Shown piece by piece: positions 4,154 to 59,028 of a stretch of 64,000 bases of DNA; position 1 is the first letter of the stretch, and the number at the start of each line of letters is the position of its first letter. Below the pieces are notes generated by a model, which saw nothing but the letters and a program-made list of their open reading frames with translations, searched no databases and was not told the origin of the DNA. A program made the position numbers and the translations under genes. Source of the stretch: an uncultured Lachnospiraceae bacterium (GTDB lineage Bacteria; Bacillota; Clostridia; Lachnospirales; Lachnospiraceae); NCBI GenBank assembly GCA_947565305.1, contig CANOFO010000002.1, positions 3,039 to 67,038 of the forward strand, read 5' to 3'.

Positions 4154-4207
4154 CTGCATATTCCCTGCAGTAATCCCATTTGTAAATCACCTGCATATTC
4201 CCTGCAG
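4154..4207. repeat. 17-bp direct repeat CTGCATATTCCCTGCAG duplicating the 3' end of the SDR gene
   Basis: Copies at 4154-4170 and 4191-4207; on the minus strand both read LQGICR followed by a stop. Confidence 0.85.
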
Positions 4208-5125
4208 CAATTCCACCGTATCCTTTACGCCGCGCTCCAAAGAACCGCCAGGGACAAACCCCAACGCTTTTATTTTCTCACAGGAAACATCATAAGACAA
4301 GTTATTCATAATTTTGGATTTTACAAATTCTACCTGCACATCTGCCAGATTTTTTTCTATTTCTTCCACAATATCTTTGACTGCGGCATTGACCGTGACA
4401 ATGTTATATATCTCATTATAAAAATGGTTATTTTTAATGATAAAACATATGGCTGCCACTGCATCCTCAATGTCCAGATAGGGACGTCTCTGCTCCCAGG
4501 CTGTCTCCCACACGCTTAGCGGCTGTCCTGTGCATGCCTGCCAGGTAAATTTATTGACTGCCGTATGAAAACGCATCCCCGGCGATATGCCGAAAATAGT
4601 GCCAAACCGACATACTGTGAAACGGAAATTACTTTCCCTGCCTAGTTTGCTCAGATATTCTTCCGACTTTACCTTCGTCTTTGCATAAGGACTCTGCGCC
4701 GCCTCCACGCTTACGGCTGTAGTTTCATCCACATTAGCTGCCGCCGCCCCATAAACGCTGGTGCTGGAGGGAAAAAACATCGGCACATCCCACTTCGCAC
4801 AGCAGTCTGCAACTTTCATAGTACCCACAAAGTTAACTTCTTCTACTTCCTGCTCTTTTTCCACACTCATCTCAGGTTCCGTATTGGCTGCAAGGTTCAC
4901 GACTGCATCCGCACCCTGGATAACGCGCGTAAGCAAGCCGTCATCCAAAATATCCCCCTGCACAAATTTATAATTTCCCTCTTTCGGAAGGTGAAACAGG
5001 GAACAATACCTCTGTACTTTAAGGTTATCCAAAATAATAATTTCTGCTCCCGGAATTGCTTCCGGCAGCTTACGGATTAATCTGGAACCAATATGCCCAA
5101 GACCGCCTGTGACAACTATTCTCAT
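4187..5125 (-). CDS. Extended SDR NDP-sugar oxidoreductase, resembling Cj1427-type C4 dehydrogenases
   Basis: TGGLGHIGS, PSSTSVYG, YAKTK, RFGTIFGISPGMRF; start placed at ATG 5125, overlapping the upstream stop. Confidence 0.8.
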   Translation of the reverse strand: MRIVVTGGLGHIGSRLIRKLPEAIPGAEIIILDNLKVQRYCSLFHLPKEGNYKFVQGDILDDGLLTRVIQGADAVVNLAANTEPEMSVEKEQEVEEVNFVGTMKVADCCAKWDVPMFFPSSTSVYGAAAANVDETTAVSVEAAQSPYAKTKVKSEEYLSKLGRESNFRFTVCRFGTIFGISPGMRFHTAVNKFTWQACTGQPLSVWETAWEQRRPYLDIEDAVAAICFIIKNNHFYNEIYNIVTVNAAVKDIVEEIEKNLADVQVEFVKSKIMNNLSYDVSCEKIKALGFVPGGSLERGVKDTVELLQGICR

Positions 5126-6021
5126 AATTTCCCTTCTTTCCTCATCCACTCTACAGCCATCTTTACGCCGCTTTGCAATGAATGCCCACACACAAATCCC
5201 AACTTTTCTAACTTCGCATTATCCCCCACAATCAAGGGAAACTCTTCATTCTTCCCGCAACGCGCAAATGCAACCAAATCTGCCTTACCTAATTCCTCTG
5301 CGACCTGTAAAATTATCTGACCAATGCTTACCGGCTTGCCGGACGAAATATTGTAAACGCCCGCTGCCTTTTTGTCAATCAGCATTTGGATAGCATTTAC
5401 CGCATCTTCAATATAAATGTAATCACGCACCAATTCCCCACATCCATTGACAATCTTCTCATTGCGAGACAGCCTCCATGCGGTCAGGGGAACCAAGCGT
5501 TCCAGCTTCTCATATCTGCCATAAATGGCGAACAGCCTCGCCTCGCAATAATGGGCATGATATTCCGCTGCCAGTTTTGCCAATACCTGGGAAGTGTACA
5601 GCTTACTGATGCCATACATGGAGGAGGGATGTTCATATTCCGGCAGTTCTTTGAGCCAGCCTTTCCCATAGTCATAGCTTGCTGATGTGCCGGCAAACAG
5701 AATCTGCCGCCCTCCGTTCTCCAAAAAAGCTTTGGCGGTCTGAATGCAGACAGAAGCCCACATGCAGTTGTCCAAAGATTCCCAATAACTCTGCGTACTG
5801 ACGTCCCATGCAAACAACACCAGAATATCGGGGCGTATTCTGTCCATATACTCAGACGTTCCTGAATATTCCTTTAAATCATAGGCAAAAAAATGCTCCG
5901 CATCCAGAAACTCTGGAAAATTCCTGCCCACCGCAAACACCTCATATTTACTTTTATCCAGGCGCTCCATAAAATTCCTGCCCAGAAAACCGCTCACCCC
6001 GGTAAGAAGCATCCTCTCCAT
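5122..6021 (-). CDS. Extended SDR, probable NDP-4-keto-sugar reductase
   Basis: TGVSGFLG, GTSASY, YGISK, RLFAIYG, RDYIYIED. Confidence 0.8.
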   Translation of the reverse strand: MERMLLTGVSGFLGRNFMERLDKSKYEVFAVGRNFPEFLDAEHFFAYDLKEYSGTSEYMDRIRPDILVLFAWDVSTQSYWESLDNCMWASVCIQTAKAFLENGGRQILFAGTSASYDYGKGWLKELPEYEHPSSMYGISKLYTSQVLAKLAAEYHAHYCEARLFAIYGRYEKLERLVPLTAWRLSRNEKIVNGCGELVRDYIYIEDAVNAIQMLIDKKAAGVYNISSGKPVSIGQIILQVAEELGKADLVAFARCGKNEEFPLIVGDNAKLEKLGFVCGHSLQSGVKMAVEWMRKEGKL

Positions 6022-6030
6022 AGCATTCTC

Positions 6031-7248
6031 CTATTCGTCTACCCTCACCTGGTCCACATAGAGGATAAATTTACCCCCCGCATCCTTAAACGCTGTCTCA
6101 TTGGCAATAATCTCCTCCCCATGATTCCAGGCAAACAACAATGCATACTCTGGATAATCAGAGACAAACGCCTCATAGGGCTTCACAGGGATATGCATAC
6201 CAGGTGTATATTTACCCTGTTTAATCGGCGTGGTATCGCTGATAAACTCAATATACTCCGGTCCGATGCCGCAATAATTGAGCACAGTGGTACTCTTAGA
6301 GGTAGCCCCATATCCGACAATCCGTTTGCCCTCCGCCTTCAGCCTCTTTAACAAGGTCAACAAATCTTCCTTGTTCTGGGCAACATTAGCTGCAAAAGCC
6401 TGGTATGTGGATAATTGCTTCAATCCTTGCTTCTCCTCATTTGCCATGATTTCCCTGACTCGGTCTGACACGTCCCTGGCGCCTTTCCTTGCCAGTATGT
6501 AGCGCATAGAACCGCCATGCACATTCTGGGGCAAAGCGTCAATAACCTCCAAACCGTGCATGCCTGCCAGATAAGATACAGAAGAAACAGAAAAATAAAA
6601 TGCATGTTCATCATATATCTGGTCATAAGAAGTCCTTCTGACTATGTCCCCAACATAAGGGTCTTCAAATATTAACACTCCCTGCGGTTTTAATAAACTT
6701 GTCACGCCATCAAAGACTGAACGGATATAGGGCAGGTGGCACATGACATTCGTGCCAGCAATTACATCTGCTTCCCCATATTCTGCTTTGATTTTCTGCG
6801 CATTTTCTTTATCGAAAAAACAGGACAAGGTATTGATGCCTTTCTCCCTTGCTGCCTGCGCAACATTCTCGGAAGGCTCAACGCCCACATGCTTAATATT
6901 CTCTTTGGCATAATTCTGCAGCATAATGCCATCGTTGCTGCCTATTTCTACGACAAATGGGTCTTCAGACAAATAGGTCTCCATCACCCAATAGGCAAAC
7001 TTCTTAAAATGCTCCACCATCCTCCGGGAGGTTGAGGCGAAGTATGCATAATTCTCATTGAACATATCCTCTTTATCAACCAGTTTTGTCAGCTGAACCA
7101 TACTGCAGGTCGGGCAGAATCCCACATCCAGCGGATAAAACTTCTCCTTCTCAAACATGTCCTCCGGCAAAAAGCCGTTGGCAATCGGCATGTCGCCAAA
7201 AGATATGACATGTTCTACCTTATTTCCACACACTAAACAATTACACAT
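6031..7248 (-). CDS. SAM-dependent NDP-hexose C3-methyltransferase (TcaB9/EvaC-like)
   Basis: Zn ligands CLVC and CPTC, EIGSNDG, NVMCH, YDQIYDEH, HGGSMR, VGYGATSKSTT, LLFAWNH. Confidence 0.9.
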   Translation of the reverse strand: MCNCLVCGNKVEHVISFGDMPIANGFLPEDMFEKEKFYPLDVGFCPTCSMVQLTKLVDKEDMFNENYAYFASTSRRMVEHFKKFAYWVMETYLSEDPFVVEIGSNDGIMLQNYAKENIKHVGVEPSENVAQAAREKGINTLSCFFDKENAQKIKAEYGEADVIAGTNVMCHLPYIRSVFDGVTSLLKPQGVLIFEDPYVGDIVRRTSYDQIYDEHAFYFSVSSVSYLAGMHGLEVIDALPQNVHGGSMRYILARKGARDVSDRVREIMANEEKQGLKQLSTYQAFAANVAQNKEDLLTLLKRLKAEGKRIVGYGATSKSTTVLNYCGIGPEYIEFISDTTPIKQGKYTPGMHIPVKPYEAFVSDYPEYALLFAWNHGEEIIANETAFKDAGGKFILYVDQVRVDE

Positions 7249-10118: not shown

Positions 10119-12342
10119 CTAAAATATATACACATAGTCTGGAATTTCTATCTCTTGCTGCCTTATGCTGTCATCCTTTACAAAAAGTAATTCTTCCTGC
10201 TGTTCTTTTGGCTTCGCTTTCATCAGCGATACCATAGAAACGGTAACCATCTCCTGCATAACGTCCTGAGTCTTCCAAAGTTCTTCCAATTGTTCTTTTA
10301 TCTGCATGGGCACTTCAAAACCATATCCACAAATCTCCTGACCCGCCTGGCGTTCTTCCCAATACGAATCCATATCTTTATCTATTTTCGTCAGAATCTG
10401 CTGCTCACTCGTTAACGTATAGTTGCTCTCTGCCCATTTTAAAATCCGTTCCCCATCACTGGTAAGGTGGTAATTCTGTTCAAAAGAATCATATTCTGAT
10501 CCCTTATTCTCTGAAAATTTTTCCCGCCAATCTTCTTCCTCTGCAAATTCAGGCTGTTCCTCTTTATATAATATCATATCTTCCAAAACTAATACATCCA
10601 TCTCCGTGCGCATGAAACATGCATACGCTTCCTGAGGGGTGCATACAATAGGTTCCCCCCGGACATTAAATGAGGTATTGACAATCACCGGACAGCCTGT
10701 CAGCTTATCAAACTCTTTAATTACCTCATAATAATAAGGGTTCCTTTCTCCGCTTACGCTCTGGATTCTGGCACTGTAATCCACATGTGTAACTGCCGGG
10801 ATATGGGAACGAGGTGTGTTGACAATGGGAATCATGTCTATACCCCCCCCCGGGGTATTTTTCCATGTAGAAGGGCAGTTGTTTCTCTTTTTTCACCTTA
10901 TCCACCAGCAGCATATAGGGGCTTTCCTGAACCAGCTCAAACTCCTGGCATTGTTTTTCTGCCAGTACAGACGGCGCAAATGGGCGGAATGACTCACGGT
11001 ACTTTATTTTTAAATTTAACTTGGACTGCATGTCAGGCAATCTGGGGTCCGCGATAATGCTGCGGTTGCCAAGCGCCCTCGGACCATACTCCATGCGCCC
11101 ATGATAAAGCCCAATTACCTTTCCATCTGCAAGCTCTTTGGCAACTTGTTTATAAATATCCTCCCCCATATCATGATAAGAATAGCCGTTCTCATCCAGA
11201 TACTGCCTGATATACGGAGAAGAAAATCCCGGTCCGAGATAGCTTCCCTTCATACTGTCCTGAGGATTGGGCTTACGCTCCTGCCCACAGAGATTATAAT
11301 AGGCATAAAGCGCCGCGCCCAGCGCGCCGCCAGCATCTCCGGCAGCTGGCTGTATCCATATGTTTTTAAATATACCGGAATTTAATAATTTTCCATTGGC
11401 AACACAATTTAATGCCACGCCGCCTGCCAGAACCAGAGAATCAATATCTTGTCCAAACGTGTCTTTTGCATAGCGTGCCATCATCATAATATGCTCTTCC
11501 ACAATCTTCTGTACGGAGGCTGCAATGTCCATCTCCCGCTTGGTAATCCGGCTTTCCGGCAGTCTGCGCCCGAAGCCAAAAACTTCGGAAAAACGAGCCT
11601 CATTTATCATGGTCCTGCCATTTTGGAAATCAAAATAAGCGAGATTTAAGCGGAATGAGCCGTCTTCCTTGATATCTATCATTTTTTCTTTGATAACATC
11701 ATAATAAACTGGTTCTCCATAAGGAGCCAAACCCATAAATTTATAATCGCCTGAATTGACCTTGAAGCCACAGAAATAAGTGAATGCACTGTAAAGAAGA
11801 CCAATGGAATGCGGATAGGAAATCTGTCTCTTTAACTGCAAATGATTTCCCTCACCTATGCCTACGGTGGTAGTCGCCCATTCCCCTACCCCATCAATTG
11901 TCATAATAACAGCTTTTTCAAACGGTGAAGGATAAAATGCAGAGGCTGCATGGGAAATATGATGCTCCGTCACAAACAGCTTCCCCTGTCTGCCAAGCCC
12001 CCCAACGGCACGTTCCAACAGTTTATGTATCCACATTCTTCGCTCATAAAGCGGCGAAAAACCTCTTTCTATCATAAGCCGCGAATCTTTTCCTAATGCC
12101 AGAACGTTATGCAAATAACGGTCCAAAGTCAGTTTTGGGTTATCATAATAGACAACACATTCCAATTCCTCCGCCGTGATTCCCGCTTCTTCCATACAGT
12201 AACGTATGGCATTAACCGGAATCCTCATATCATGTTTATTTCTGGTAAACCGTTCCTCCTGTGCTGCTGCTATAACCTCACCATCTTGGATTAAGGCTGC
12301 TGCTGAATCATGGTATAATCCTGATATTCCTAAAATGTACAT
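10119..12342 (-). pseudogene. NodU/CmcH-family carbamoyltransferase split by a frameshift at a G9 tract (currently out of frame)
   Basis: The first ORF has ILGISGLYHDSAA, EHHISHAAS, DGVGE, GGVALNC, GPRALGNRS, RESFRPFAP. The second frame continues IPAVTHVDYSARIQ...NTSFNVRGEPIV. Removing one G joins them. Confidence 0.88.
10843..10851 (-). repeat. G9 homopolymer (C9 on +) at the frameshift junction
   Basis: + strand reads TA-CCCCCCCCC-GGGG; G8 or G11 restores KYPGGGIDMIPIVNTPRS. Confidence 0.9.
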
Positions 12343-17315: not shown

Positions 17316-18335
17316 CTAACAGCTAATTTTCAGCAATGTCGTCTGTCCATGAATCCTGATATCCGCAGAATTTGCCGGAACAAATACACAGTCCCCATGA
17401 AAGAAATTTATCATCTCCCCCCTATTCCAGTTCAAGACCCCGCAGCCCTCTACACACAAAAGAATCTGAAACGAATTCTCCGCCTGGGAAATTTCCACTA
17501 CCTCTCCCCGATGCCTTGTGCTTATCATCATGCGCTCCACCTGAAAATAGCGGCAGCGGCATAAGAATTCTGTGGCATACCCCCTCTTAAATTTCAGCAC
17601 ACGCATCGGCTGCCGCAAATCCCGGCTTGATTTCAGGCAAGCCACCTCCAATGCTTTCTCAATGTGGAGTTCCCGCTGTTTTCCCATTTTATCGGTCCTG
17701 CCATAGTCATACAGACGGTAAGTGATATTGGAATTTTCCTGAATTTCTGCCACCAGGCTTCCCGCCCCCAGGGAATGCACCTGCCCGGGCGGGATAAAGA
17801 ACACATCATCCTTCTGGATACGGACTTTCTGCAGATATTTTTCAATATCTCCTGCCATAATGCTGTTCCTTACCTGTTCTTTTTCCATATCATGGCAGAA
17901 ACCATATACCAGCTTGGCATCTTTCGCCGCATCCAGTACATACCACATCTCCGTTTTTCCCAATGAACCATTTTCATGCACTCTGGCATAGTCATCACTC
18001 GGGTGGACCTGCACAGAAAGATCTTGTCTGGCATCAATAAACTTAATCAGGCAAGGCAATTCTCCACGCGGATTTGCATACTTTCCCATATATTCCGGAT
18101 GCTCGATTAAGACCTGCGCTAAATTCTGTCCGGCATATTCGCCGGAAGCCACCATACTGATTCCGTCAGGATGCGTGGAACATTCCCAGGTTTCAGCCAA
18201 CGGCTGCATGGCAAGGTCTTTGCATAATTCAAGGTTCAGCCTGCTGCCTCCCCAGAGATAGTCTTTGCCCACAGGCTTCAAGAGAAATGGAGCTGCCTCT
18301 TTATTCCCATTCAAATTTCTGTTTGTCATGGACAC
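17316..18335 (-). CDS. manA: Class I mannose-6-phosphate isomerase
   Basis: DYLWGG, ETWECSTHPDG, KFIDARQDLSVQVHP, GKTEMWY, EIQENSNITYRLYDYGR. Confidence 0.92.
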   Translation of the reverse strand: MSMTNRNLNGNKEAAPFLLKPVGKDYLWGGSRLNLELCKDLAMQPLAETWECSTHPDGISMVASGEYAGQNLAQVLIEHPEYMGKYANPRGELPCLIKFIDARQDLSVQVHPSDDYARVHENGSLGKTEMWYVLDAAKDAKLVYGFCHDMEKEQVRNSIMAGDIEKYLQKVRIQKDDVFFIPPGQVHSLGAGSLVAEIQENSNITYRLYDYGRTDKMGKQRELHIEKALEVACLKSSRDLRQPMRVLKFKRGYATEFLCRCRYFQVERMMISTRHRGEVVEISQAENSFQILLCVEGCGVLNWNRGEMINFFHGDCVFVPANSADIRIHGQTTLLKISC

Positions 18336-19614
18336 TGATCTCCTTACCCAACTGCACCTCCAAAATCTTTAGAACCGTACTGGCTATCACAGTATGGCGG
18401 CAGCCAGCCTGCATGGTAATGACATCCCCGGCAGTTACTATCTGTTCCATACCATCTACAATCACCTTGCCCTCGCCGGAAATAATGCTCCACACCTCAT
18501 CCCGCCGCTCATGGCTATGGTAATTCATCTTCTCGCCTGCATTCAGCGTCACCTTAATCGTCAGGCTGTTCTCTTCTATATCGAGAATGCGAAAACTTCC
18601 CCAGGATTTCTCTGCATAGCGGATGGGCCTGTCTAACTTTTCCACATAAGGCTTCATAAAACTGGACTGCGCTTTATCCGAGACCAGGATGCCATCTGGA
18701 CCGGCGGAAACTACGATGTCTTTGAGCCCCATGCACAGCACCGGAATATCCAGTTCATTGATGACATGGACATTTTCACAAGATTCATCCAGCATTGCAT
18801 CACCAACGGTAAACTTGCTCATAGTATCCGTCAGCGTATTCCAGGTGCCCAAATCCTTCCACGCCCCACCGTAACGCACTACCTGAATATTAGGCTCATG
18901 TTCTGCCACCGCATAATCAAAACTGATTTTATCCAGACTTTCATATTTGGCATATAAATCTGCATAATCCTCAAATTCAATCAATTCATGCGCTTTATCC
19001 AGGACATATTTTAATTTATAGGCAAACACGCCGCCGTTCCATAACGCGCCCTCTGCAATGTATCTTTTTGCCGTCTCCATATCCGGCTTTTCCTTAAAGG
19101 TCTTAACCGAGGAAATTTCCCCCTTATCCTGTGGGATAATATAGCCATATTTCTCACTGGGGTAGGTGGGTTCAATTCCCATCAGCACCAAATTAGCCTC
19201 CCCCTTTGCCGCCTGCTGCGCCAACCGCCCTAATGTCTCAAAATAACTGTCCTCCACATAGGGGTCTATCGGGCATACAATTACGGCTTCCTCCTCCTGC
19301 ACCTTCCTCACGTCATGGAGATATGAGGTCGCTAAAGCAATAGCCGGAAACGTGTCTCTGCGGCATGATTCTAAGCTAATCCCCACCTGTTCCCCCAATT
19401 GGCTGCGGATTATTGAGGACTGCGACTTGGATGTCGCTACCGTCACTGTGGAATTGGGCGCCGCCTTTTGAATCTGTCTGTACACCCGCTGCAACATGGA
19501 TTCCGCTTCCCCCTCTTCCCCCTCGAAAAATTTGATAAACTGTTTGGAGCGGACGTCATTGGACAGGGGCCACAAACGTTTCCCCGAACCGCCTGACAGC
19601 AATATGATATTCAT
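18301..19614 (-). CDS. manC: Mannose-1-phosphate guanylyltransferase with C-terminal cupin
   Basis: ILLSGGSGKRLWPLS, KQF, YGYI, FKEKPD, SFDYAV, WKDLGTW, EKSWG. Confidence 0.92.
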   Translation of the reverse strand: MNIILLSGGSGKRLWPLSNDVRSKQFIKFFEGEEGEAESMLQRVYRQIQKAAPNSTVTVATSKSQSSIIRSQLGEQVGISLESCRRDTFPAIALATSYLHDVRKVQEEEAVIVCPIDPYVEDSYFETLGRLAQQAAKGEANLVLMGIEPTYPSEKYGYIIPQDKGEISSVKTFKEKPDMETAKRYIAEGALWNGGVFAYKLKYVLDKAHELIEFEDYADLYAKYESLDKISFDYAVAEHEPNIQVVRYGGAWKDLGTWNTLTDTMSKFTVGDAMLDESCENVHVINELDIPVLCMGLKDIVVSAGPDGILVSDKAQSSFMKPYVEKLDRPIRYAEKSWGSFRILDIEENSLTIKVTLNAGEKMNYHSHERRDEVWSIISGEGKVIVDGMEQIVTAGDVITMQAGCRHTVIASTVLKILEVQLGKEISVHDKQKFEWE

Positions 19615-19672
19615 CTCTTAACCACTCTTTCCTTTCTGTGCTTTCCCATTCTTTTTACCCGGGAAACACTGA

Positions 19673-20605
19673 TTAAAGCATTTCCCTGGAACTCCACCAC
19701 TGATATGTATTTCGCACTGCCTCTTGAAAAGTAGTCCTGGCATACCATCCCAGGTCATGGATGCGCTGTGAATCCAGGCACATATGCTGCCTACCTTCCG
19801 GCTTGCCCGAATCAAACACCACTTCTCCTGGATAGTTTACCACTTCTTTGATTGTCATTGCCGCTTCGCGTATCGTAATCTCTCCACCACTGCCGACATT
19901 ATACAGAAACTCGTCTTTGGCATGGTTCATGACAAAGATGCATGCCTCCGCCAAATCCTGAGAGTACAGAAATTCGCGACAAGCATTACCTGTTCCCCAC
20001 ACAACTACCTGAGATTCATGATTTTCTTTTGCCAAATGAAAGCGCTCTATCAGCGCCGGAATCACCCCGGCTTTGTTGCTTCCCATGGGCGCATGTTCCC
20101 CAAAAAAATTACAGGGTATCACAGTTATCGCCGGAAAAGCATATTGCCGCCTGTAATATTCACATAATTTTGCACCCGCCAGCTTCGCCAGCGTATAGGG
20201 AGCATCGATACCCTGCAAATCGATTCTGCCGATATCCTCCTCGCGAAAAACCTCACAATCGCTTTGAGGATAAAGCAGAATGCTGCCTATGTTCAGAAAT
20301 CCCTTAACCTGGCAACGGCAGGCTGCCTCCAAAACATTCATAGCCATCCTCAGGTTGCAGTTAAGCATATCCAAAGGATATTCACGCTTAAACTCTATAC
20401 CTCCAACCAGACCGGCTGCAAAAAATACATACTCTGGCTGCTCACGTTCAAAAAAAGACATGGTATCCGCCCAATTTTCCAAGTCCAGTTCCGAATGGGA
20501 ACGGACAATAATATTATCATACCCTTGCTCTTTTAACTTTTTTAAAATGGCAGAGCCAGCCATCCCGCTGTGCCCAGCCACATATATTCTCGCATGTTTC
20601 TCCAT
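19673..20605 (-). CDS. GDP-L-fucose synthase/ColC-family SDR lacking the epimerase Cys/His pair (probably reductase only)
   Basis: YVAGHSGMAGSA, AAGLVGGI, PYTLAK, VIPALI, VVWGTG..REFL, KPEG; GSSCIYP appears as GSILLYP and SHVIP as AGVIP. Confidence 0.85.
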   Translation of the reverse strand: MEKHARIYVAGHSGMAGSAILKKLKEQGYDNIIVRSHSELDLENWADTMSFFEREQPEYVFFAAGLVGGIEFKREYPLDMLNCNLRMAMNVLEAACRCQVKGFLNIGSILLYPQSDCEVFREEDIGRIDLQGIDAPYTLAKLAGAKLCEYYRRQYAFPAITVIPCNFFGEHAPMGSNKAGVIPALIERFHLAKENHESQVVVWGTGNACREFLYSQDLAEACIFVMNHAKDEFLYNVGSGGEITIREAAMTIKEVVNYPGEVVFDSGKPEGRQHMCLDSQRIHDLGWYARTTFQEAVRNTYQWWSSREML

Positions 20606-20608
20606 CGG

Positions 20609-21781
20609 CTAAACAAGCCCTTTCATAATCGTTTCCATAGTCTCTATAAAATAATCTATCTTGTCGTTGATGATTGTCGGATGGTTGCCTATGTAAAACC
20701 CGCTGTCATGTATCACGTCCGCATTCGTCAACGGCTGCGGTATGCTGTAATCCATAAATGCAATCGCCTTATTCCTCATGAAATTGCCAGCAAGAATCGG
20801 CCTGGTCTCGATACCTGCCTTTTCCAGTTCCCCGACCACCTGATTGCGCTTTGCGGCAAATCCATCTTCCAGTATCATGCCAAAGCCATACCATGAAGAT
20901 TTCCCTACTTCTGACTGCAGTCGAATCCCCGGGATTCCTTTTATTTTTTCAGACAGATAGGCAGCGTTTTCTCTCCTGTTTTTTATAATCTGGTCAAGTT
21001 TTTTTATCTGACGGCAGCCAATTGCCCCCTCCATATCTAAGGGACGTACATTAAATCCGGGCACGATAAAGTTAAATTTCTCATAAAATGGATTTTCACT
21101 GGCTTCGTTAATCACGCTGTCCTGGGGAAGATTCCGTGTCCAGCCGTGCGCCCTAATGCAAAGCATATACTCATACAATTCACGGTCATCTGTCACTGCT
21201 ATACCGCCTTCCATTGTACACAGATGATGGGCAAAAAAAGTAGAAAACGTTCCCAGCATCCCTATCGTCCCCAACTGCCTGCCCTCATACTCCGCACCCA
21301 TAGCCTCGCAATTGTCTTCCATGAGGATAATATGTTCCCTCTCACAGATTTGGGTCAACTCAGCAAATTTATTGGCATTCCCCAAGAGATTCACAGCAAC
21401 AATTAACTTCGTATTGTTCGTGACTGCCTCCTGGACTTTGGAAACATCCATGTTAAAGGTATCCGCCTCAACGTCCACAAACACCAATTTCAGCCCAAAC
21501 TGCACCAATGGAAAATAGGTGGTGCTCCAGGAGACAGCCGGGACGATTACCTCATCCCCTGCATGAAGCTTTCCTGAATAGACAAGGGCTGCAACTGCAA
21601 CCAGATTTGCACTGGAACCCGAATTAACCATCACCGCATATTTGCTGCCAAACTTTAAGGCAAACTCTTTTTCATATTCCGCAACATGCTTGCCCATCGT
21701 ATACATGTCGCTTTTTATCACCTCATTGATTGCTTCCAATTCTTCTTCATCCCAGGATGACTGGCAAAGTCCGTACTTCAC
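20609..21781 (-). CDS. colD: GDP-4-keto-6-deoxy-D-mannose 3-dehydratase (PLP-dependent)
   Basis: SSWD, YAVMVNSGSSANL, VPAVSWSTTY, EDNCEAMGA, STFFAHHLCTMEGG (His replaces the PLP Lys), IRAHGWTRNLP, PGFNVRP; closely follows E. coli ColD as I recall it. Confidence 0.88.
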   Translation of the reverse strand: MKYGLCQSSWDEEELEAINEVIKSDMYTMGKHVAEYEKEFALKFGSKYAVMVNSGSSANLVAVAALVYSGKLHAGDEVIVPAVSWSTTYFPLVQFGLKLVFVDVEADTFNMDVSKVQEAVTNNTKLIVAVNLLGNANKFAELTQICEREHIILMEDNCEAMGAEYEGRQLGTIGMLGTFSTFFAHHLCTMEGGIAVTDDRELYEYMLCIRAHGWTRNLPQDSVINEASENPFYEKFNFIVPGFNVRPLDMEGAIGCRQIKKLDQIIKNRRENAAYLSEKIKGIPGIRLQSEVGKSSWYGFGMILEDGFAAKRNQVVGELEKAGIETRPILAGNFMRNKAIAFMDYSIPQPLTNADVIHDSGFYIGNHPTIINDKIDYFIETMETIMKGLV

Positions 21782-22782
21782 TGTTCTCCCTCCATTTCTT
21801 TATATGTTTTCATGTACCATTCATAAATTTCCGGCAAACCCTGGTCCAGGGAAATTTCCGCCTGATACCCTGTCAGTTGATAGAGTTTATCTGTGCAGGG
21901 GCAGCGGCGGAGCACACAGCCTTCCGGGGCTGGTTCCACCTTTACCTGTGGATTACTGCCAGCAATGGTTAGCAGCTTTTTCAACAAATCAATAATCTTG
22001 ATTTCCTCATCACTCTTGCCGATATGCACAATCTCGCCCTGACAGCGGTCCGACAGCATCACCGCCTCCGTTGCGCGGACGCCGTCTTTCACATCACAGA
22101 ATGCCCGCGTCTCCTCCCCTCCATAAATCGTAAAAGGATTTTCACCGTCAAAAATTCGTTTTATAAATTCCGGCAGTACATGGTCAAATCCCATCCTCGG
22201 TCCATAGATGTTATGATAGCGGATAATTTTTACAGGCACATGGTTCACTCTCCCATAGTTGGCGGCAATAATCTCACCAATCAACTTGCTTCCGCCATAA
22301 GACCAACGCGGATTAAGCACGTTATCTATTGTCAGCGGAATATCCTCTTTGGTCGGGATATACTCTGCATGTTCGTCCAGATAGCAATTGATTGTGCCCG
22401 CATACGTTTCTGATGAGGAAGAATACAGGAAACTCCCGCAATTCTCTGATGTACACCACTCCAACATATTCATCAAAGTCAGGATATTTGCCCTGAGCAC
22501 GTCATAGGGCCTTTGATAAAAGTTTTTCGTCCCATTGATAGCAGCCAGATGATACACATAATCATATTTCCCAGACAACTGGCGATAAAATTTTTTCTCC
22601 GTCATGTCTGCCTGAATAAAAATTACATTTGCTTTCTCAATCAAGGACTGGAACATTCCATCGGAAGAACCACGTGCAAAATTATCAATCACGGTGACTT
22701 CCATTCCTTCCTGCCCTGACAGGTAATCTGCCAGATGGTAACCTATAAAGCCGCTTCCTCCTGTAACTATCGCTCTCTTCAT
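21778..22782 (-). CDS. Extended SDR, UDP-uronate decarboxylase/epimerase-like
   Basis: TGGSGFIG, HLAAINGT, SSSSETY, PRWSYGGSK, RYHNIYGPRM, ETRAFC. Confidence 0.75.
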   Translation of the reverse strand: MKRAIVTGGSGFIGYHLADYLSGQEGMEVTVIDNFARGSSDGMFQSLIEKANVIFIQADMTEKKFYRQLSGKYDYVYHLAAINGTKNFYQRPYDVLRANILTLMNMLEWCTSENCGSFLYSSSSETYAGTINCYLDEHAEYIPTKEDIPLTIDNVLNPRWSYGGSKLIGEIIAANYGRVNHVPVKIIRYHNIYGPRMGFDHVLPEFIKRIFDGENPFTIYGGEETRAFCDVKDGVRATEAVMLSDRCQGEIVHIGKSDEEIKIIDLLKKLLTIAGSNPQVKVEPAPEGCVLRRCPCTDKLYQLTGYQAEISLDQGLPEIYEWYMKTYKEMEGEQ

Positions 22783-24074
22783 ATCTTCTCCTCTATCAGC
22801 ATATTGCCAATTGTGTCTCTCTCTTCTCTTTCCTTTAATTCATCACAGCAGTCCCAGATGTCCAATATCCTGACCCCCTCCATTCCCTGTGTAAAATGAA
22901 AGGTATGGTACCTGCTGCAGTTATTCAGTGCCAGCATCCCGGCAATTCCCTCACAGGCTTCGTTTAGGTCATCATACACTTCCCCCAAATTCAATTCCTG
23001 CAGTTCCTCACGCCTGGCAACAAAATCATGTAATCTCAATTTATAGCCTTTGTCCTTCAGCTTCCTTGCGATATATACGGAACTGGACCCCCTCAAATCA
23101 GAAGTCTCCGGCACGCCTTTGAATGCCATCCCAGTAAGGAGCAGCTCTTTCTCCTGAGCCGGCGCGCCGATTTTGCGCTCCACCCAGCAGACAACATCGT
23201 CTTCCAGCGATTCGTTAAAGCGCCTTGCCGCATATATGAAATCTTTGCTCTTTCCCTCTTGCATATTGTTCATCAGGATATAGGCATCTTTCTCCAGACA
23301 TGGTCCAGCCACAAATCCAGGGCTGGCAATGTTGCTCCTTGCGTAACCTTCGTTGGCATTTCTGATGACGCTGATGCCATCGAGCCCAAATGTCTGTGCT
23401 GCCACATTAAGCACGTTGCCTAGGGCAAAATTCATATCCCGGTAGATATTGCAGTATAACTTAATGAGTTCTGCTTCCTCCAGACTCTCCGCTTCTATCA
23501 CCTTGGAAGTAATCTGCTTAAAAAGCTTATGTGACATTTTGACTGCCTGTGGGGAATTGCCGCTGACAACCTGCGGAAGGCTTGTCAGTTCCACAAGCGC
23601 TTTTCCCTCAACCGTACGTTCCGGGCACATGGCAATCATCGGGGCACACCCCGAATCTTCTGCCATCTCCTGCAGCCTTGGCAATACCACGTTCCTGCTG
23701 GTGCCAACAGATACCGTGCTGCGCAGGATAACCAGTTCACGTCCGCTATATACGTTCCTGAACGCCTTCAAAGAGGACACGATATAATCAAAATTCGGCT
23801 CTTTTGTCTGCCCAATGAGAGGCGTCCCTACTGTAATCATAAAGGCGTCAAATTGTACATCCCGTGGAAACTCTTCCACACAGAAAAATTTCCGCCCCAT
23901 ACATTCCTTGATTTTATCGTCTAAGCCAGGTTCAAAAAAATGTGCTTGACCACCTGCCAAAGACTGTTTTATCCGCTTCTCCTTTTCTACGCCATACACG
24001 GTAATGCCTTTATCCGCTGCGGCAATGGCAAAGGTCAGGCCCACATAGCCAAGCCCAATTATTCCTATCGTCAT
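22779..24074 (-). CDS. Nucleotide-sugar 6-dehydrogenase (UDP-Glc/ManNAc dehydrogenase family)
   Basis: IGLGYVG, ITVGTP, RSTV, CPER, AELIKL, GPCLEKD, GMAFK, DLRGS. Confidence 0.9.
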   Translation of the reverse strand: MTIGIIGLGYVGLTFAIAAADKGITVYGVEKEKRIKQSLAGGQAHFFEPGLDDKIKECMGRKFFCVEEFPRDVQFDAFMITVGTPLIGQTKEPNFDYIVSSLKAFRNVYSGRELVILRSTVSVGTSRNVVLPRLQEMAEDSGCAPMIAMCPERTVEGKALVELTSLPQVVSGNSPQAVKMSHKLFKQITSKVIEAESLEEAELIKLYCNIYRDMNFALGNVLNVAAQTFGLDGISVIRNANEGYARSNIASPGFVAGPCLEKDAYILMNNMQEGKSKDFIYAARRFNESLEDDVVCWVERKIGAPAQEKELLLTGMAFKGVPETSDLRGSSSVYIARKLKDKGYKLRLHDFVARREELQELNLGEVYDDLNEACEGIAGMLALNNCSRYHTFHFTQGMEGVRILDIWDCCDELKEREERDTIGNMLIEEKI

Positions 24075-24098
24075 TTCCTACGCCTCTTTTCTTCGGTT

Positions 24099-25295
24099 TT
24101 ATCTTTGTGATAAGAGTTTCTTCGATAATGAAATCACACGGTTCACCACGGTATCTGAGTTGAAATGCTCCCACTCGCCCCAGCGTCCAACGCCAAATAT
24201 ATGATGCTTTTCCATCTCCTGTAAGATAGCGCTTATCATCACTTTCTTCTTTACGGTATTGCATGGGTATGCGTATTGGTTCACATATTTCCAGCCCCCT
24301 GCCGGCACAACCCTTTCCATATTCGTCTCATAGAATCCGCCATGTCCGCCCTCGATAAAGTTATTGCGGTAAAACCTTCTGTGATAGGGCAGCTCATGGT
24401 TCGGATAAAATACCCAATGGGCATTGTCCTCCCTGTCCTCTTCAAAGTACCTGACTTCCAGCGAGGTGTATGGCAGCTCTTTACAGTAATCCGTAACCTG
24501 GGAATCACAGCCTGTAATCTCGTCAAACTCCGTCCAGGGAATCGTATTGATGATATATTCTGCTGAATATGTATCGTTAACGGTTTTCGTCTTACAGTCT
24601 AATTTATTGGCTTGCACATGGTACTCAATCTTATCTTTCACACGTTCTGCCATGCGATTCCAGACCTCGCCGTAACCAGCCGTCTTGGGATAATAAAATG
24701 CGCCGTGGGACGGATATTTGCCATGCATTTTCTTTTCCAGACAGCTCAGGAGCGTATCTTCAAAATTGACCGTTGGCAATTTATCCAGCCAATAAGTGCC
24801 AAGTTCGTCAAAATATTTGCCAAACATCTTTTTGTTGTAGGGAACCAAATACTCCCCAGCAATTTTATCTCCTAGTTTCCAGTGCGCCCATTCTTCAAAA
24901 TTCTCCGGCATAGGCGTATTCAAGTTGGCTCCGGCATAGGCAATTGATTTCAGATATTCCACCTGGTCTTCCAACGGCAGCTGGTATATCTGGGCTTCCA
25001 TCGGATAATCTATTACTGCCCTGCCCAAATCAATCTTTCGGATACAGGGATAATAATTCCATTCCTCCAGGGGCATAAACGATAATATGTATTCCTGACC
25101 TTCGCTCTTTCTGGCATCTAAGAAATGACCTCCGCCAAAATCAAGCGGAAAACCCCCTACTTCCTCACTGCGGCATAATCCCCCGGCGTTTTCTTCCTTC
25201 TCCAACACCAGAAAATTTTCTTCTCCTCCGTCTTTCAGGCAGTTTGCCATCGTTACACCGGCTGGTCCGGCTCCTAAAATCAAATACTTCAGCAT
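24099..25295 (-). CDS. FAD-dependent oxidoreductase, UDP-galactopyranose mutase-like
   Basis: ILGAGPAG, GGLCRS, DFGGGHF, PYNKKM, FYYPKTAG, YAYP, GRWGEWEHFNSD. Confidence 0.7.
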   Translation of the reverse strand: MLKYLILGAGPAGVTMANCLKDGGEENFLVLEKEENAGGLCRSEEVGGFPLDFGGGHFLDARKSEGQEYILSFMPLEEWNYYPCIRKIDLGRAVIDYPMEAQIYQLPLEDQVEYLKSIAYAGANLNTPMPENFEEWAHWKLGDKIAGEYLVPYNKKMFGKYFDELGTYWLDKLPTVNFEDTLLSCLEKKMHGKYPSHGAFYYPKTAGYGEVWNRMAERVKDKIEYHVQANKLDCKTKTVNDTYSAEYIINTIPWTEFDEITGCDSQVTDYCKELPYTSLEVRYFEEDREDNAHWVFYPNHELPYHRRFYRNNFIEGGHGGFYETNMERVVPAGGWKYVNQYAYPCNTVKKKVMISAILQEMEKHHIFGVGRWGEWEHFNSDTVVNRVISLSKKLLSQR

Positions 25296-25325
25296 TTTTT
25301 TCTCCTTTGAACAATATTTAATATA

Positions 25326-26948
25326 TTAGATTTTTCGACAAAAAATAATTGTATTACTAACATCTTCCATTAAAAAATTCAATTTATCCTTTGCTTCTTT
25401 TTCACTCCCGCATTTTACCCCAGCATAACATTTTATCTTCGGCTCTGTCCCGGAAGGACGGATACAGCACCACGCATCAGCCTCCAGTTCAAAGTACAAT
25501 ACATTGGAACGCGGCAGACCTGTGACCGCGGCTTTACCTGTCAGGCAATTTACAATCTTATCCTCACGGTAATCACGAAACTGCATAACTTTAAATCCTC
25601 CTATCTGCTCGGGAAGATTGGTGCGTATATGTTCCATCATTGCTGCAATTTTTTCTTTTCCCTCCTGCCCCTTTAGGGTGACAGCAGTAAGCCCCTCTTT
25701 AAAGTAGCCGTATCGTTGACAAAGATGTTCCATCTGTTCACAAAGCGTCATGTTCCGGCTCCTGCACCACGCAGCGACTTCACACAATGCCATCGCTGCA
25801 GCCACGGCGTCTTTATCTCTGGCGTACGTCCCCGGCAGACAGCCATAACTCTCCTCAGAGCCAAACAGATATTCATAACTGTGCTCCTGCTCAAACTGCT
25901 TAATCTGCTCCCCGATATATTTAAAACCAGTGAGCGTCTCTATCAATTCCACATGATACTCTTTTGTAATTTTCCTTGCCATTTTCCCGGAAACAATGGT
26001 AGTTATAACCGCACCATTCTCCGGCAAGATACCTAAGGCTTTTTTTTGGGAAAGGATGTATTCTAAAATCAGCATCCCGGACATATTGCCAGTAAAACTT
26101 TTGTAACTTCCAGTCTTTGTATCCTTAGCATATATCCCCAGACGGTCCGCATCGGGGTCCGTAGCAAGCACAATGTCTGCCTCCACTTCTTCTGCCAGCT
26201 TTAATGCAAGGTCAAAGGCATGTTTATCCTCAGGATTCGGATAAGAAACCGTAGGGAAGTTTCCGTCCGGCAATTCCTGCTCCTTTACCACGTAAACCTG
26301 TGCAAAACCTAATTCCTGCAAAATCCTCCTCACTGGAAGATTCCCTGTCCCATGCAATGGCGTATAGACAATCTTCAGCTTTGATGCCTGTTCCCTGATT
26401 ATCTGAGGACGGAGCGCTAATTTTTTTATAGCTTCAAAATACCGGTCTTCTGTCTCAGGTGGAATAACCTGATATAATCCTCTTTCTTCTGCTTCTTCCC
26501 GGGATATGGACTTAATCTGAGCAAAATCTGTAACATCATTTACCCTGGCAATAATTTCTTTATCCCTGGGCGCCGTAATCTGTCCACCATCCTCCCAATA
26601 AACTTTATATCCGTTATACTCGGGAGGATTATGGCTTGCTGTCACTACAATGCCAGCCATACATCCAAGTTCTCGAATTGCAAAAGATAGCATCGGGGTC
26701 GGGTGCGGCTGGGAAAATATATAGACTTTAATCTTGTTTGCCGCCAGACAGCAAGCTGCCGTTTCCGCAAACTCAGAAGACCTATTCCTTGTATCATAAG
26801 CAATGGCGACCCCCTTCTCTCCGCCTTTCTGTTCTATAATATAATTGGCAAGCCCCTGCGTTGCTTTTTGGACTGTGCCGCTGTTCATCTGGTCTTCTCC
26901 TTCGCCCATAATACCACGGAGTCCGCCAGTGCCAAATTCCAATCCCAT
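25326..26948 (-). CDS. pgm: Phosphoglucomutase/phosphomannomutase
   Basis: FGTGGLRG, TASHNP (phospho-Ser), DPDADR, GFKYIG, EESYG, RPSGTEPKIK. Confidence 0.93.
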   Translation of the reverse strand: MGLEFGTGGLRGIMGEGEDQMNSGTVQKATQGLANYIIEQKGGEKGVAIAYDTRNRSSEFAETAACCLAANKIKVYIFSQPHPTPMLSFAIRELGCMAGIVVTASHNPPEYNGYKVYWEDGGQITAPRDKEIIARVNDVTDFAQIKSISREEAEERGLYQVIPPETEDRYFEAIKKLALRPQIIREQASKLKIVYTPLHGTGNLPVRRILQELGFAQVYVVKEQELPDGNFPTVSYPNPEDKHAFDLALKLAEEVEADIVLATDPDADRLGIYAKDTKTGSYKSFTGNMSGMLILEYILSQKKALGILPENGAVITTIVSGKMARKITKEYHVELIETLTGFKYIGEQIKQFEQEHSYEYLFGSEESYGCLPGTYARDKDAVAAAMALCEVAAWCRSRNMTLCEQMEHLCQRYGYFKEGLTAVTLKGQEGKEKIAAMMEHIRTNLPEQIGGFKVMQFRDYREDKIVNCLTGKAAVTGLPRSNVLYFELEADAWCCIRPSGTEPKIKCYAGVKCGSEKEAKDKLNFLMEDVSNTIIFCRKI

Positions 26949-46166: not shown

Positions 46167-47960
46167 TTATGACCACATATTTGCCGGCATATAGCGGGCA
46201 GACATTTTCCATTTCATAAACTCCGTGGAACCGCTTCCTGTCGTGAAATACTCAATCGCATCCAGAATATCCCTGTTAACATGTTTCTTATTTACAAAAA
46301 ATCCTTCCGCGTTCTGGACAACATCCGCATTTTCCGGTCCGATAGCAAGCAGCTTCTCTACCATCTCTCTCAGTTCCACCTTCTTGCATTTATAGACATT
46401 GCCAAAGGGAATATCTGCGAACCGGCTTGGTTTCACATCAGGTATCAGCCAGTCCTTAACTGCAATGCTTGGTTTGCCGAACAGCAGCCCTTCCACCATA
46501 ACGCTGGATTCATCCGAAACGATAATATCACACATCATCAATGCCACCATAATGCTCTCTTCTGACTCAATATAATGCAGATTATCATAATGCCCCTCAT
46601 GAAGCTTACGCATATCCGCAATGTTCTTAACAATATCCTCGTACCCTTTGGGCGGCCATGCAGACTGTTTGACGATAAGATTGACTGGCAGCGATGACAA
46701 TGCACGTACGAAATCATCTTCTTTCTCATCACATTCCCAGGACGGAGCATACAGTACGGTAATCTTATGCTGCAGGTCCATGCTTTTTCTCAGTTCCTCT
46801 ACCCGCTTATGCAGTTCTTCCGAAAATATCTCAACGCTTTTGGGATAGCCTAGCATATATGCTCCACAGCGGGGATTTACATAATATTGAAATGCACATC
46901 GCTCCCATTTATCTTTCCAATCCTCCCCTGGAACAATGCCAATGTCATAGGCATTCCAACGTTCCATCTCCCATATGTTGGGCCATCTGAGATGCCCTTG
47001 TGCCATATCATGCAGCAAGACCAGGGAAAACCTGGAATTCTGCGGTTTGCCAACATGCTGGCAATAAACCCCGATTTCCGCCTTTTCATCCAGATTATCA
47101 GTGTGCCTTACTTTATATCCTCTTGTCTTGGCGTATTCCGCAATCGGCAGCATATTATAATATTCACCTTTCTCCGTGGCAAAAAAAGTAATCTCTTTCT
47201 TCAGCTTCCTATCTTCGACAGGTAAATCCTGCAGCAAATATCTGTGCTCTGCGGAAAGGCCGTTGGGAGTATTTTTAAACTGCTGCCAGCCATGATTCCT
47301 GACAAACACCTCCATTTGGCTTTGAAACAGCTCTGTCTGCTTCTTTAGCTTTGCCTCGTCAAACCGCTCGACAAAAGTTCCCACCAGCGCTACTTCCAGC
47401 AGTGCCATGACCCTTCCCTGCAGAATCTCAAACAGCAGAAAAGCTTTCTGCATTGCCGGATTTTGCTCTGTCTGATATTGCTGCAGATTGTCCATGCACA
47501 ATTTTACTTTTTCCCGATGGAACATGGTAGTGGTCAGGCTGCCCAACAGATTATGCCCTTTTTCCAGACAGACGCGCAATACCTGATTTCCCTCAAAAAT
47601 CGTGTCCCGAAAAACTCCTAAATATCCGCCATCCTGATACGCAACTATTGTGCCATCTCCCTCAAGATATACCCTGTTACAGAAGATAACTGCCGTCCCG
47701 CCTACTCCTTCTGCCAACTGTTCGATTTTCTCCGCATATTCCACCATACGCTGGATTTTATTGGCCGCCAATATCTGGTCTGCCTCCAGAAAACAGATAT
47801 AATCACTGTCTGTCGTCTCACAATAATCTACAATATCCTGATAAAACTCTTTGCCCGTTACGGCCTCAACAACCTCTAAATTCTCATAAGTCTGCTTTAT
47901 CAGCACATTGTCAATATAATCCGAGGTACAATCTATACATATCACTGAAACCTTCTTCAT
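46167..47960 (-). CDS. GT2-like domain plus TagF/CDP-glycerol phosphotransferase-like domain; paralog of 61263-63152
   Basis: GYPKS, VLYAPSW, DIIVSDESSV..E.LLFGKP; start moved to ATG 47960 after AGGAGG. Confidence 0.65.
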   Translation of the reverse strand: MKKVSVICIDCTSDYIDNVLIKQTYENLEVVEAVTGKEFYQDIVDYCETTDSDYICFLEADQILAANKIQRMVEYAEKIEQLAEGVGGTAVIFCNRVYLEGDGTIVAYQDGGYLGVFRDTIFEGNQVLRVCLEKGHNLLGSLTTTMFHREKVKLCMDNLQQYQTEQNPAMQKAFLLFEILQGRVMALLEVALVGTFVERFDEAKLKKQTELFQSQMEVFVRNHGWQQFKNTPNGLSAEHRYLLQDLPVEDRKLKKEITFFATEKGEYYNMLPIAEYAKTRGYKVRHTDNLDEKAEIGVYCQHVGKPQNSRFSLVLLHDMAQGHLRWPNIWEMERWNAYDIGIVPGEDWKDKWERCAFQYYVNPRCGAYMLGYPKSVEIFSEELHKRVEELRKSMDLQHKITVLYAPSWECDEKEDDFVRALSSLPVNLIVKQSAWPPKGYEDIVKNIADMRKLHEGHYDNLHYIESEESIMVALMMCDIIVSDESSVMVEGLLFGKPSIAVKDWLIPDVKPSRFADIPFGNVYKCKKVELREMVEKLLAIGPENADVVQNAEGFFVNKKHVNRDILDAIEYFTTGSGSTEFMKWKMSARYMPANMWS

Positions 47961-48122
47961 AAATCTTATCCTCCTGATTGTTGTCTGCAGGTCTCCTTCT
48001 TCATATTCTACCATAGGAACTATGAAAAATCAGCAAATTCCAATTATTTTCTTGTGAATTAGTTTCAATTCAAGGCACATTTTACGTCACACGAAAAAAC
48101 CAAAATATCTACATTCCCAACA

Positions 48123-51622: not shown

Positions 51623-51654
51623 GTCAAATCATTTCCTCAATATTGTTATAAATG

Positions 51655-54342: not shown

Positions 54343-54344
54343 AT

Positions 54345-55487: not shown

Positions 55488-55500
55488 CTTACTGTCCCTC

Positions 55501-56061
55501 TTATACCAGACCTTTTCCCATTATGGTATTCTCATATTTGCTCTTGCATCTGTCACAGATGCCGTCTTCATCCAGCCGATTACCACATGCACACACCCAA
55601 CCGGCAATTTCCGCCGGTACGCCCAGGACCAACGCATTATCAGGGACATCTCTGGTGACAACCGCCCCCGCCCCGACCATGGCGTATTTGCCTATCGTTG
55701 CACCGCAGACAATGGTTGCGTTCGCGCCTATCGTTGCCCCCTCTTTGACCAACGTTTTTTTATAGTTTGCCCTGCCCTTCGGGTATCTTGCCCGCGGCGT
55801 CAAATCATTGGTGAATACACAGGACGGTCCGCAAAATACGCCATCTTCAAGGACAACGCCCTCATAGAGGGATACGTTGTTTTGGATTTTGACATCGCTG
55901 CCTACGGTCACATGATTCGCCACATTTACATTCTGTCCCAGGGAACAATTATTCCCAATATGGGCTCCCGACTGTATGTGGCAAAAATGCCAGATTTTCG
56001 TACCCTCTCCAATATAGACGTCTTCCTCTATATAACTGCTTTCATGCACAAAATATCCCAT
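55501..56061 (-). CDS. wbpD: Hexapeptide-repeat N-acetyltransferase (WbpD/WlbB-like)
   Basis: KIWHFCHI, SLGQNV, KIQNNVSLYEGV, FCGPSCVFTND..PR, GWVCACG. Confidence 0.9.
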   Translation of the reverse strand: MGYFVHESSYIEEDVYIGEGTKIWHFCHIQSGAHIGNNCSLGQNVNVANHVTVGSDVKIQNNVSLYEGVVLEDGVFCGPSCVFTNDLTPRARYPKGRANYKKTLVKEGATIGANATIVCGATIGKYAMVGAGAVVTRDVPDNALVLGVPAEIAGWVCACGNRLDEDGICDRCKSKYENTIMGKGLV

Positions 56062-58240: not shown

Positions 58241-58285
58241 TTACAGCCTCCTACTTTCTACAGTTGACTTGCGTATTCCCATTCT

Positions 58286-59020: not shown

Positions 59021-59028
59021 ATTAACAC

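Follow-up and report, generated by a model that had tools for sequence, protein, structure and literature searches.

The colD gene run and its reductase

The 64,000-nucleotide stretch analysed here (the window) comes from contig CANOFO010000002.1 of an uncultured Lachnospiraceae bacterium (assembly GCA_947565305.1, 83% complete; G000 below, where the other G and L numbers denote comparison genomes and loci) and carries a run of eight minus-strand genes that includes colD, known from GDP-L-colitose synthesis. The genes are, in order, manB, mutase, dehydrogenase, short-chain dehydrogenase/reductase (SDR), colD, reductase, manC and manA. The first encodes a manB-like phosphomannomutase/phosphoglucomutase (25326..26948; Pfam PGM_PMM I-III) predicted to serve GDP-mannose supply, with a second copy on contig C84 of G000. 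It is followed by a flavin adenine dinucleotide-dependent nucleoside diphosphate (NDP)-pyranose/furanose mutase homologue (24099..25295), whose best solved matches are UDP-galactopyranose mutases (E 5e-23), and by an NDP-sugar 6-dehydrogenase (22779..24074) with the N-terminal, central and C-terminal UDPG_MGDP_dh Pfam domains and a TIGR03026 score above cut-off. Next come an NAD-type SDR with a uronate-decarboxylase signature (21778..22782), a ColD-type C3-dehydratase of 390 amino acids dependent on pyridoxal phosphate (PLP; 20609..21781) and a C4-reductase of the Fcl fold with 310 amino acids (19673..20605). The run closes with a ManC-like mannose-1-phosphate guanylyltransferase (18301..19614; Pfam NTP_transferase and MannoseP_isomer, TIGR01479 below cut-off) and the mannose-6-phosphate isomerase ManA (17316..18335; TIGR00218 above cut-off), whose real start may lie a few codons later.

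These genes are tightly packed: the dehydrogenase stop overlaps the SDR start by 4 bp, the SDR gene overlaps the colD start by another 4 bp, and 3 bp separate colD from the reductase gene. A scan for promoters and terminators gave no clear boundary. A contig from an independent study covers 18325-25348 (manC to mutase) unbroken, and near-identical DNA is present in rodent or unspecified gut metagenomes from three studies, with no RNA dataset among the carriers listed. The glycosylation island around the run ends at a flagellin-like gene (C2:1454-2167) just beyond the window.

The best solved relative of the window ColD is E. coli ColD/WbdK (2GMS, E 1e-131), with which His185 (21227-21229), in a STFFAHH motif at residue 180, aligns at His188, the position of the PLP lysine. 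The protein lacks the Cys-containing insertion of RfbH/E1, and both features listed for ColD-type enzymes, a histidine replacing the PLP lysine and no Fe-S cysteine cluster, are present (PMC8987622). According to the same source ColD chemistry touches only C3 and C4. Since Campylobacter homologues take both 6-deoxy and 6-hydroxy heptoses (PMC10440746, PMC10680097), the C5 substituent of a ColD substrate is not fixed.

The reductase aligns with E. coli GDP-fucose synthase (1BSV, E 1e-67) so that Ser108, Tyr137 and Lys141 fall on the catalytic Ser107, Tyr136 and Lys140, and Leu110 (20276-20278) and Gly180 (20066-20068) fall on Cys109 and His179. The motifs concerned are GSILLYP at residue 107, PYTLAK at 136 and KAGVIP at 178. 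Cys and His are the epimerase base and acid of GDP-fucose synthase (PMC7949155, PMC2279256), and E. coli O111 ColC retains both (GSSCMYP, SSHMIP). An earlier, sequence-only reading of the locus had described a ColD-type dehydratase carrying His in place of the PLP lysine, next to an Fcl-family SDR that kept its reductase residues and lost both epimerase residues, and had proposed reduction without C5 epimerisation; the alignments bear out the residues described. The reductase is on its sequence no ColC-type 5-epimerase/reductase, and the product of the locus is probably not colitose, as that reading also held.

Among 121 aligned rows (the query and 120 matches) the dyad columns read Leu/Gly in 34, Cys/His in 82 and otherwise in 5; because so many rows share Leu/Gly, and the independent contig spans the locus, the substitution is not an assembly error. 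The Ser-Tyr-Lys triad is invariant in all 33 members of the clade, as are the guanine-site residues Val181 and Trp203. The predicted structure (mean predicted local distance difference test score 88.6) matched E. coli GDP-fucose synthase in Foldseek with a TMq of 0.92-0.94, and also Campylobacter GDP-heptose C4-reductases; the NF047922 score is 303, below the cut-off of 500. In human GDP-fucose synthase either single substitution, C116A or H186A, abolishes activity towards the 6-deoxy substrate (PMC12362431), so loss of the dyad does not by itself yield a D-hexose reductase.

Upstream genes and their co-occurrence

A tyvelose or a colitose reading of the locus requires Gmd. In G000 no gene scored over the TIGR01472 cut-off, where only weak RmlB and RfbG matches appeared, and nothing was found by tblastn with two clostridial Gmds or with three longer Gmd motifs; a five-letter Gmd motif matched once, on contig C107, without tblastn support. 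TIGR01472 gave no gmd in the congeners G832 (99% complete) and G892/G402 (99%) or in the relative G236 (93%) either, and the same search detected the gene in control genomes and also in G022 and G375. Altogether gmd was not found in four of the five genomes with colD and the decarboxylase-like SDR. The slot upstream of colD, which gmd holds in L015, L069 and L071, is filled by the dehydrogenase and the SDR. A heptose route was discarded, since a Gmd-like heptose dehydratase would match TIGR01472 and none did.

The absence of a detected gmd also bears on the possibility that the locus makes ordinary colitose, with C5 epimerised by a separate RmlC-type cupin, for which the synthesis of 3,6-dideoxyheptoses in Campylobacter is a precedent (PMC10440746). 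G000 has two RmlC-like genes, yet neither lies in the cassette, one belonging to a CDP-glucose cluster at a distance of about 43 kb, and no cupin adjoins L010-L013, which leaves this route very improbable.

For the dehydrogenase, which carries the motifs GLGYVG, CPER, KLYCN and GPCLEKD, the nearest solved enzymes are UDP-N-acetylmannosamine dehydrogenase and CalS8. The SDR has human UDP-xylose synthase (UXS1) as its top sequence match, its family profile ranked 8VR2 first (titled oxidoreductase/decarboxylase), and Foldseek placed the EvdS6 decarboxylase first. Ser119, Glu120 and Arg277 distinguish the decarboxylases and are replaced in uronate epimerases (PMC3438964); their counterparts in the SDR are Ser124, Glu125 and Arg293. 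All 59 homologues in the alignment share these residues, as well as Tyr162 and Lys166, without exception. The signature of Ser/Thr-Ser-Glu, YxxxK and a conserved Arg (Arg277 of UXS, Arg619 of ArnA) is carried by the SDR, its motifs recurring in 120, 120 and 118 of 120 matches. The SDR therefore likely works like a uronate decarboxylase, as judged from these residues, while forming a subfamily of its own. The conserved Arg has been used to pick decarboxylases, among which ArnA, AtmS9 and CalS9 pass a released ketone on to a PLP enzyme (PMC10338323).

Of the 14 bacterial loci compared, 13 have a 6-dehydrogenase adjoining the SDR (G000, L005-L008, L010-L012, L048-L050, L073 and L244); the fourteenth, L013, begins 120 bp upstream of the SDR and is unclear there. 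A short form of the dehydrogenase (260-280 amino acids) lies within about 2 kb of the SDR in all 14 viral loci. The third partner varies, being a Lys-type aminotransferase in L005-L008, L048 and L168, ColD in G000, L010-L013 and the phage loci L112/L120, another His-type PLP family in L164-L167 and L173, and Fcl in some loci (G567, G803, Azospirillum lipoferum 4B); by eye, L165 also has a GDP-mannose 3,5-epimerase-like gene. From their families these third partners are predicted consumers of a 4-ketone; no such partner was seen in L050, L163, L169, L172 or L174. The His-type family of L164-L167 and L173 consists of 423-residue proteins of the DegT family in which His replaces the PLP lysine (VAHNMTTGEGG); they are 35-36% identical to RfbH and encoded beside the short dehydrogenase and the decarboxylase-like SDR, and by sequence may form a third C3-dehydratase lineage.

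When the same families were followed through other loci, Gmd occurred with intact Fcl (fucose type) in L056-L058 and L060, with ColD and intact Fcl (colitose type) in L069 and L071, with ColD and a dyad-less reductase in L015, and with a dyad-less reductase and no ColD in L024 and L027. In L061 (508-2526, genome G797) Gmd and Fcl share a single 673-codon frame, either a fusion or a lost stop codon. The dehydrogenase and decarboxylase-like SDR occurred with a Cys/His Fcl and no ColD in L049 (G567), L073 (G803) and L244 (A. lipoferum 4B plasmid AZO_p4); G567 and G803, which are 95% complete, have no gmd. The decarboxylase-like SDR occurred with ColD and a degraded dyad in G000, L011, L012 and L013 (Leu/Gly) and in G236 (Ser/Lys). 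The dyad is thus degraded in five of five bacterial loci that pair the decarboxylase-like gene with colD.

G236, retrieved with the decarboxylase query, carries these four genes in a different order, and its dehydrogenase shares 30% identity with that of G000 and 64% with that of G567. A constraint placing the five reductases in one clade was rejected (approximately unbiased test, p 0.0006; quick tree of 26 rows picked from a 48-row set plus L244, quick trees being supported by the Shimodaira-Hasegawa-like approximate likelihood ratio test), and the G236 reductase is therefore a separate recruitment. Within ColD, Tyr298 (SSWYGF) is found in all five decarboxylase-linked bacterial proteins, in none of the four Gmd-linked ones and in 8 of the 117 top homologues that could be read at this position. 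Phe takes its place in the decarboxylase-linked ColD of the phage, and the residue is a lead only. Glu204 was dropped as a diagnostic residue, being the majority residue in a wider homologue alignment.

Wider genome sampling added few cases, namely 1 in 400 same-family genomes (>60% identity), 1 in 398 of the class, 0 in 300 of the order and 2 in 48 congeners. Across 80 viral ColD loci (L083-L162), gmd was present in 59, the decarboxylase-like gene and dehydrogenase in 2 (one near-identical phage pair), both in none and neither in 19. A recognisable Fcl lay in the fetched flanks of only 16 of these 80 loci, with Cys kept in 16 of 16 and His in 15 of 16. GenBank phages yielded no ColD at E 1e-60, and a single-protein viral scan gave 30-residue matches only. 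The earlier suggestion that 3,6-dideoxysugar genes are unusual in a Gram-positive gut anaerobe was overstated: ColD occurs in 3 of the 400 same-family genomes, and L069 and L071 are ordinary gmd-colD-fcl operons with Cys and His intact.

A predicted GDP-3-deoxypentose route

We propose that the dehydrogenase, decarboxylase-like SDR, ColD and reductase probably make a 3-deoxypentose bound to GDP and not a 3,6-dideoxyhexose. ManA, ManB and ManC would supply GDP-D-mannose, whose C6 the 6-dehydrogenase would oxidise to give GDP-mannuronate. The UXS/ArnA-like SDR would then oxidise C4, remove CO2 and release GDP-4-keto-D-lyxose, replacing Gmd as the source of the ketone. ColD would take off the 3-OH with PLP and glutamate, and the reductase would reduce C4 with NADPH, the Fcl hydride face predicting GDP-3-deoxy-D-threo-pentopyranose, that is, colitose minus its methyl group. 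By analogy we moderately favour this D-threo product over its L-erythro C4 epimer; Campylobacter Fcl-fold enzymes yield either configuration. We infer that a pentose can take the ring form of the L-sugar at no cost. Because C3 and C5 would both be CH2 along this route, a dyad would have nothing to epimerise. The adjacent mutase homologue, which also lies directly upstream of the dehydrogenase in L011 and L012 and not in L010, may act in an optional last step that turns the 3-deoxypentose into a furanose, for flagellin or a surface glycan.

The loci with intact Fcl extend this scheme. Removal of C6 from GDP-mannose would leave a D-lyxo pentose, from which C3 epimerisation and reduction by Fcl would give D-arabinose, the homomorph of fucose; that epimerisation to GDP-D-arabinose would need the dyad, which is retained in three of three ColD-less decarboxylase-Fcl loci (L049, L073 and L244), and their sequences predict de novo GDP-D-arabinopyranose synthesis. 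Taken together, we lean slightly towards a broader scheme in which a GDP-mannuronate decarboxylase stands in for Gmd in both bacteria and phages, and a GDP-pentose branch mirrors the 6-deoxyhexose one, with intact Fcl leading to GDP-D-arabinopyranose and ColD plus a dyad-less reductase to GDP-3-deoxy-D-threo-pentose, which at the window locus may end up in furanose form on flagellin.

Several observations speak against this proposal. On the side of Gmd and the reductase, a gmd gene is present in G403, on a 3.4-kb contig apart from the cassette, and the G403 assembly has no close dehydrogenase, the 120 bp upstream being unclear at a contig end. The Leu/Gly state is shared by a sister clade that sits with gmd (L015, L024 and L027), and 14 sister rows in all work with Gmd or come from gmd-positive, decarboxylase-negative genomes, so that the dyad was lost before the cassette arose and not because of a pentose substrate; more likely the cassette recruited a pre-existing plain reductase. 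Ser/Lys in G236 substitutes the dyad conservatively and falls short of its full loss. Of the five bacterial cases four are closely related, and independent cases are few, with ColD in two bacterial lineages and one phage, and intact Fcl in two lineages.

Some observations can be read in favour of the pathway that the sequence-only reading had proposed, a Gmd-fed route to GDP-tyvelose or its C4 epimer, in which GDP-4-keto-6-deoxymannose would come from an unassembled gmd or from the upstream SDR, if that enzyme did the work of Gmd without being its orthologue. The Ser/Thr-Ser-Glu motif of the SDR is common to Gmd, G000 is only 83% complete, G403 combines cassette and gmd, and the sister reductases accompany gmd and, in L015, ColD. 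Campylobacter Fcl-fold reductases act in vitro on unepimerised 3,6-dideoxy substrates (PMC10440746, PMC7949155). This route is nevertheless rather unlikely at the window locus, where that claim is probably wrong, given that gmd was found neither in G000 nor in the three near-complete cassette genomes G832, G892 and G236, that the Arg typical of decarboxylases is present in the SDR, and that this enzyme accompanies a 6-dehydrogenase which a 4,6-dehydratase would not need; the genes upstream would remove C6.

The layout envisaged in that reading, gmd with colD and a dyad-less reductase, does exist elsewhere. G022 (95% complete) has two ColD loci, L069 (C68) with gmd-colD-fcl beside flagellin, and L015 (the same as L070; C18) with gmd, colD, a GT2 gene, the dyad-less reductase and manC. 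GDP-tyvelose or its C4 epimer is a fair prediction for the second, which from its gene content is the best candidate for a true route of this kind. Sister dyad-less reductases are also followed by a pyranose/furanose mutase homologue in L016-L019 and L028, in gmd-positive genomes without ColD and, in L016, with flagellin genes adjoining, which suggests a 6-deoxyhexofuranose route.

The two upstream enzymes raise objections of their own to the 3-deoxypentose proposal. The dehydrogenase is no nearer to GDP-mannose dehydrogenase (E 5e-22; AlgD, 1MFZ, ranked sixth) than to UDP/TDP enzymes, and GDP as the nucleotide is inferred from ColD, Fcl and the manABC neighbours, not from the dehydrogenase. 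The SDR lies far under the NCBIfam cut-offs for ArnA-type proteins (72.8 against 294 for NF008872 and 73.5 against 777 for NF005998), and a UDP-glucuronate 4-epimerase scores about level with the decarboxylases; as it matches equally well, overall similarity identifies only a uronate-type SDR. The Glu-Arg pair is also present in UXS, an enzyme that keeps the ketone bound and reduces it (PMC3438964), and structures fail to explain why some enzymes release the ketone and others reduce it (PMC10338323).

If the near-top epimerase match is taken at face value, C6 would be retained: the SDR would only oxidise or epimerise C4, ColD and the reductase would give a GDP-3-deoxy-D-hexose, and the dehydrogenase would make a GDP-3-deoxyhexuronate. 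A C4-dehydrogenase and a C3-dehydratase do give 3-deoxy-6-hydroxy heptoses in vitro (PMC10680097). We regard this as quite improbable: epimerases have Ser and Thr at the positions of SDR Glu125 and Arg293 (PMC3438964), their carboxylate-binding Arg185 aligns with Gly198 of the SDR, and a freed 4-keto-uronate, being a beta-keto acid, would be expected on general chemical grounds to decarboxylate.

Ketone release is where the fourth rival enters, that the run serves two unlinked routes. The dehydrogenase and SDR would then make a reduced pentose (UDP-xylose-like or GDP-lyxose), consistent with most characterised decarboxylases releasing the reduced sugar (PMC10338323), and ColD and the reductase would act on CDP- or dTDP-4-keto-6-deoxyglucose or lie idle. 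G000, G892, G236 and G403 carry rfbG, and all cassette genomes carry rmlB, but G832 has neither gmd nor rfbG, which also weakens a CDP-fed ColD. As both ColD and the reductase have stayed intact and conserved in homologues 58-93% identical, and the decarboxylase-ColD pairing recurs in three separate lineages, this explanation is unlikely.

Further genes were noted in other parts of the window and in its surroundings. On the minus strand a carbamoyltransferase spans two overlapping open reading frames (10119-12342), its C-terminal Pfam domain broken at profile position 85-88, likely by a frameshift. WbpA/B/D/E/I-like diacetamido-uronate genes occupy 48123-56061 (minus strand) and phosphonate genes 57194-63998 (minus strand), with a phosphoenolpyruvate mutase whose N-terminal extension runs past the window end. 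Past the right end of the window, L009 (3578-9012) lacks rfbH but has rfbF in duplicate and rfbG, together with genes for a C-methyltransferase, an RfbJ-like reductase and a cupin resembling RmlC. Another C-methyltransferase gene lies with two SDR genes at 4187-7248 of the window, and the two regions together suggest branched-chain CDP sugars. Two proteins of 615-629 amino acids, encoded at 46167-48014 (minus strand) and 61263-63152 (plus strand), had no Pfam match at 1e-8 and have C-terminal halves that look alike by eye; the latter gene is the only long plus-strand gene of the window.

Relation to known pathways

All the enzyme families in the run are known, and it is their order and product that would be new. 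Among the characterised prokaryotic routes listed in a 2020 survey, four pentoses derive from glucose-1-phosphate, and GDP-mannose is the source of no pentose (PMC7725333). Full-text searches for a nucleotide-linked 3-deoxypentose, GDP-mannuronate decarboxylase, GDP-pentose and GDP-tyvelose returned nothing relevant in a literature mostly without subscription papers, in which a known 3-deoxypentose glycan may be missed. GDP-D-arabinopyranose appears mainly in literature on trypanosomatids, for which an abstract describes a salvage route. Tyvelose has reportedly been described in a polysaccharide of Eubacterium (Lachnoanaerobaculum) saburreum in older literature; our literature search found no paper with it. 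If the proposal is right, it would add a new sugar to the bacterial glycan alphabet and a de novo route to GDP-D-arabinopyranose, and loci annotated for colitose or fucose could encode demethylated look-alikes, perhaps on the flagellin of gut commensals.

Four known systems can be set beside the locus. The CDP-tyvelose pathway (RfbF, RfbG, RfbH/E1, E3, RfbS, RfbE) has rfbF and rfbG counterparts elsewhere on the G000 contig but differs in nucleotide and mechanism, and tblastn found no RfbH orthologue in G000, the best match being ColD itself at 31%. Campylobacter jejuni DdahC and MlghC are likewise dyad-less Fcl-fold reductases that only reduce (PMC7949155), in a system whose ColD homologue is tolerant at C5; that system, however, works on heptoses and includes a dedicated epimerase and, upstream, either a C4-dehydrogenase or a dehydratase resembling Gmd, none of which is found in the window cassette.

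Closest in logic are the ArnA/ArnB, CalS8/CalS9, AtmS9 and EvdS6 routes, in which a 6-dehydrogenase is followed by an oxidative decarboxylase that frees a 4-keto-pentose for a PLP enzyme (PMC10338323). Theirs start from UDP- or TDP-glucose and lead to PLP-dependent transamination, whereas the PLP enzyme of the window is a C3-dehydratase and its neighbours suggest GDP-mannose. The GDP-L-colitose pathway of E. coli O55/O111 and Yersinia pseudotuberculosis (Gmd, ColD/WbdK, ColC) shares with the locus a ColD 51% identical to that of O111, an Fcl-fold reductase and manABC nearby. It differs in that the window locus has no gmd, its reductase lacks the Cys/His pair, and a dehydrogenase and a decarboxylase-like gene stand in the slot of gmd.

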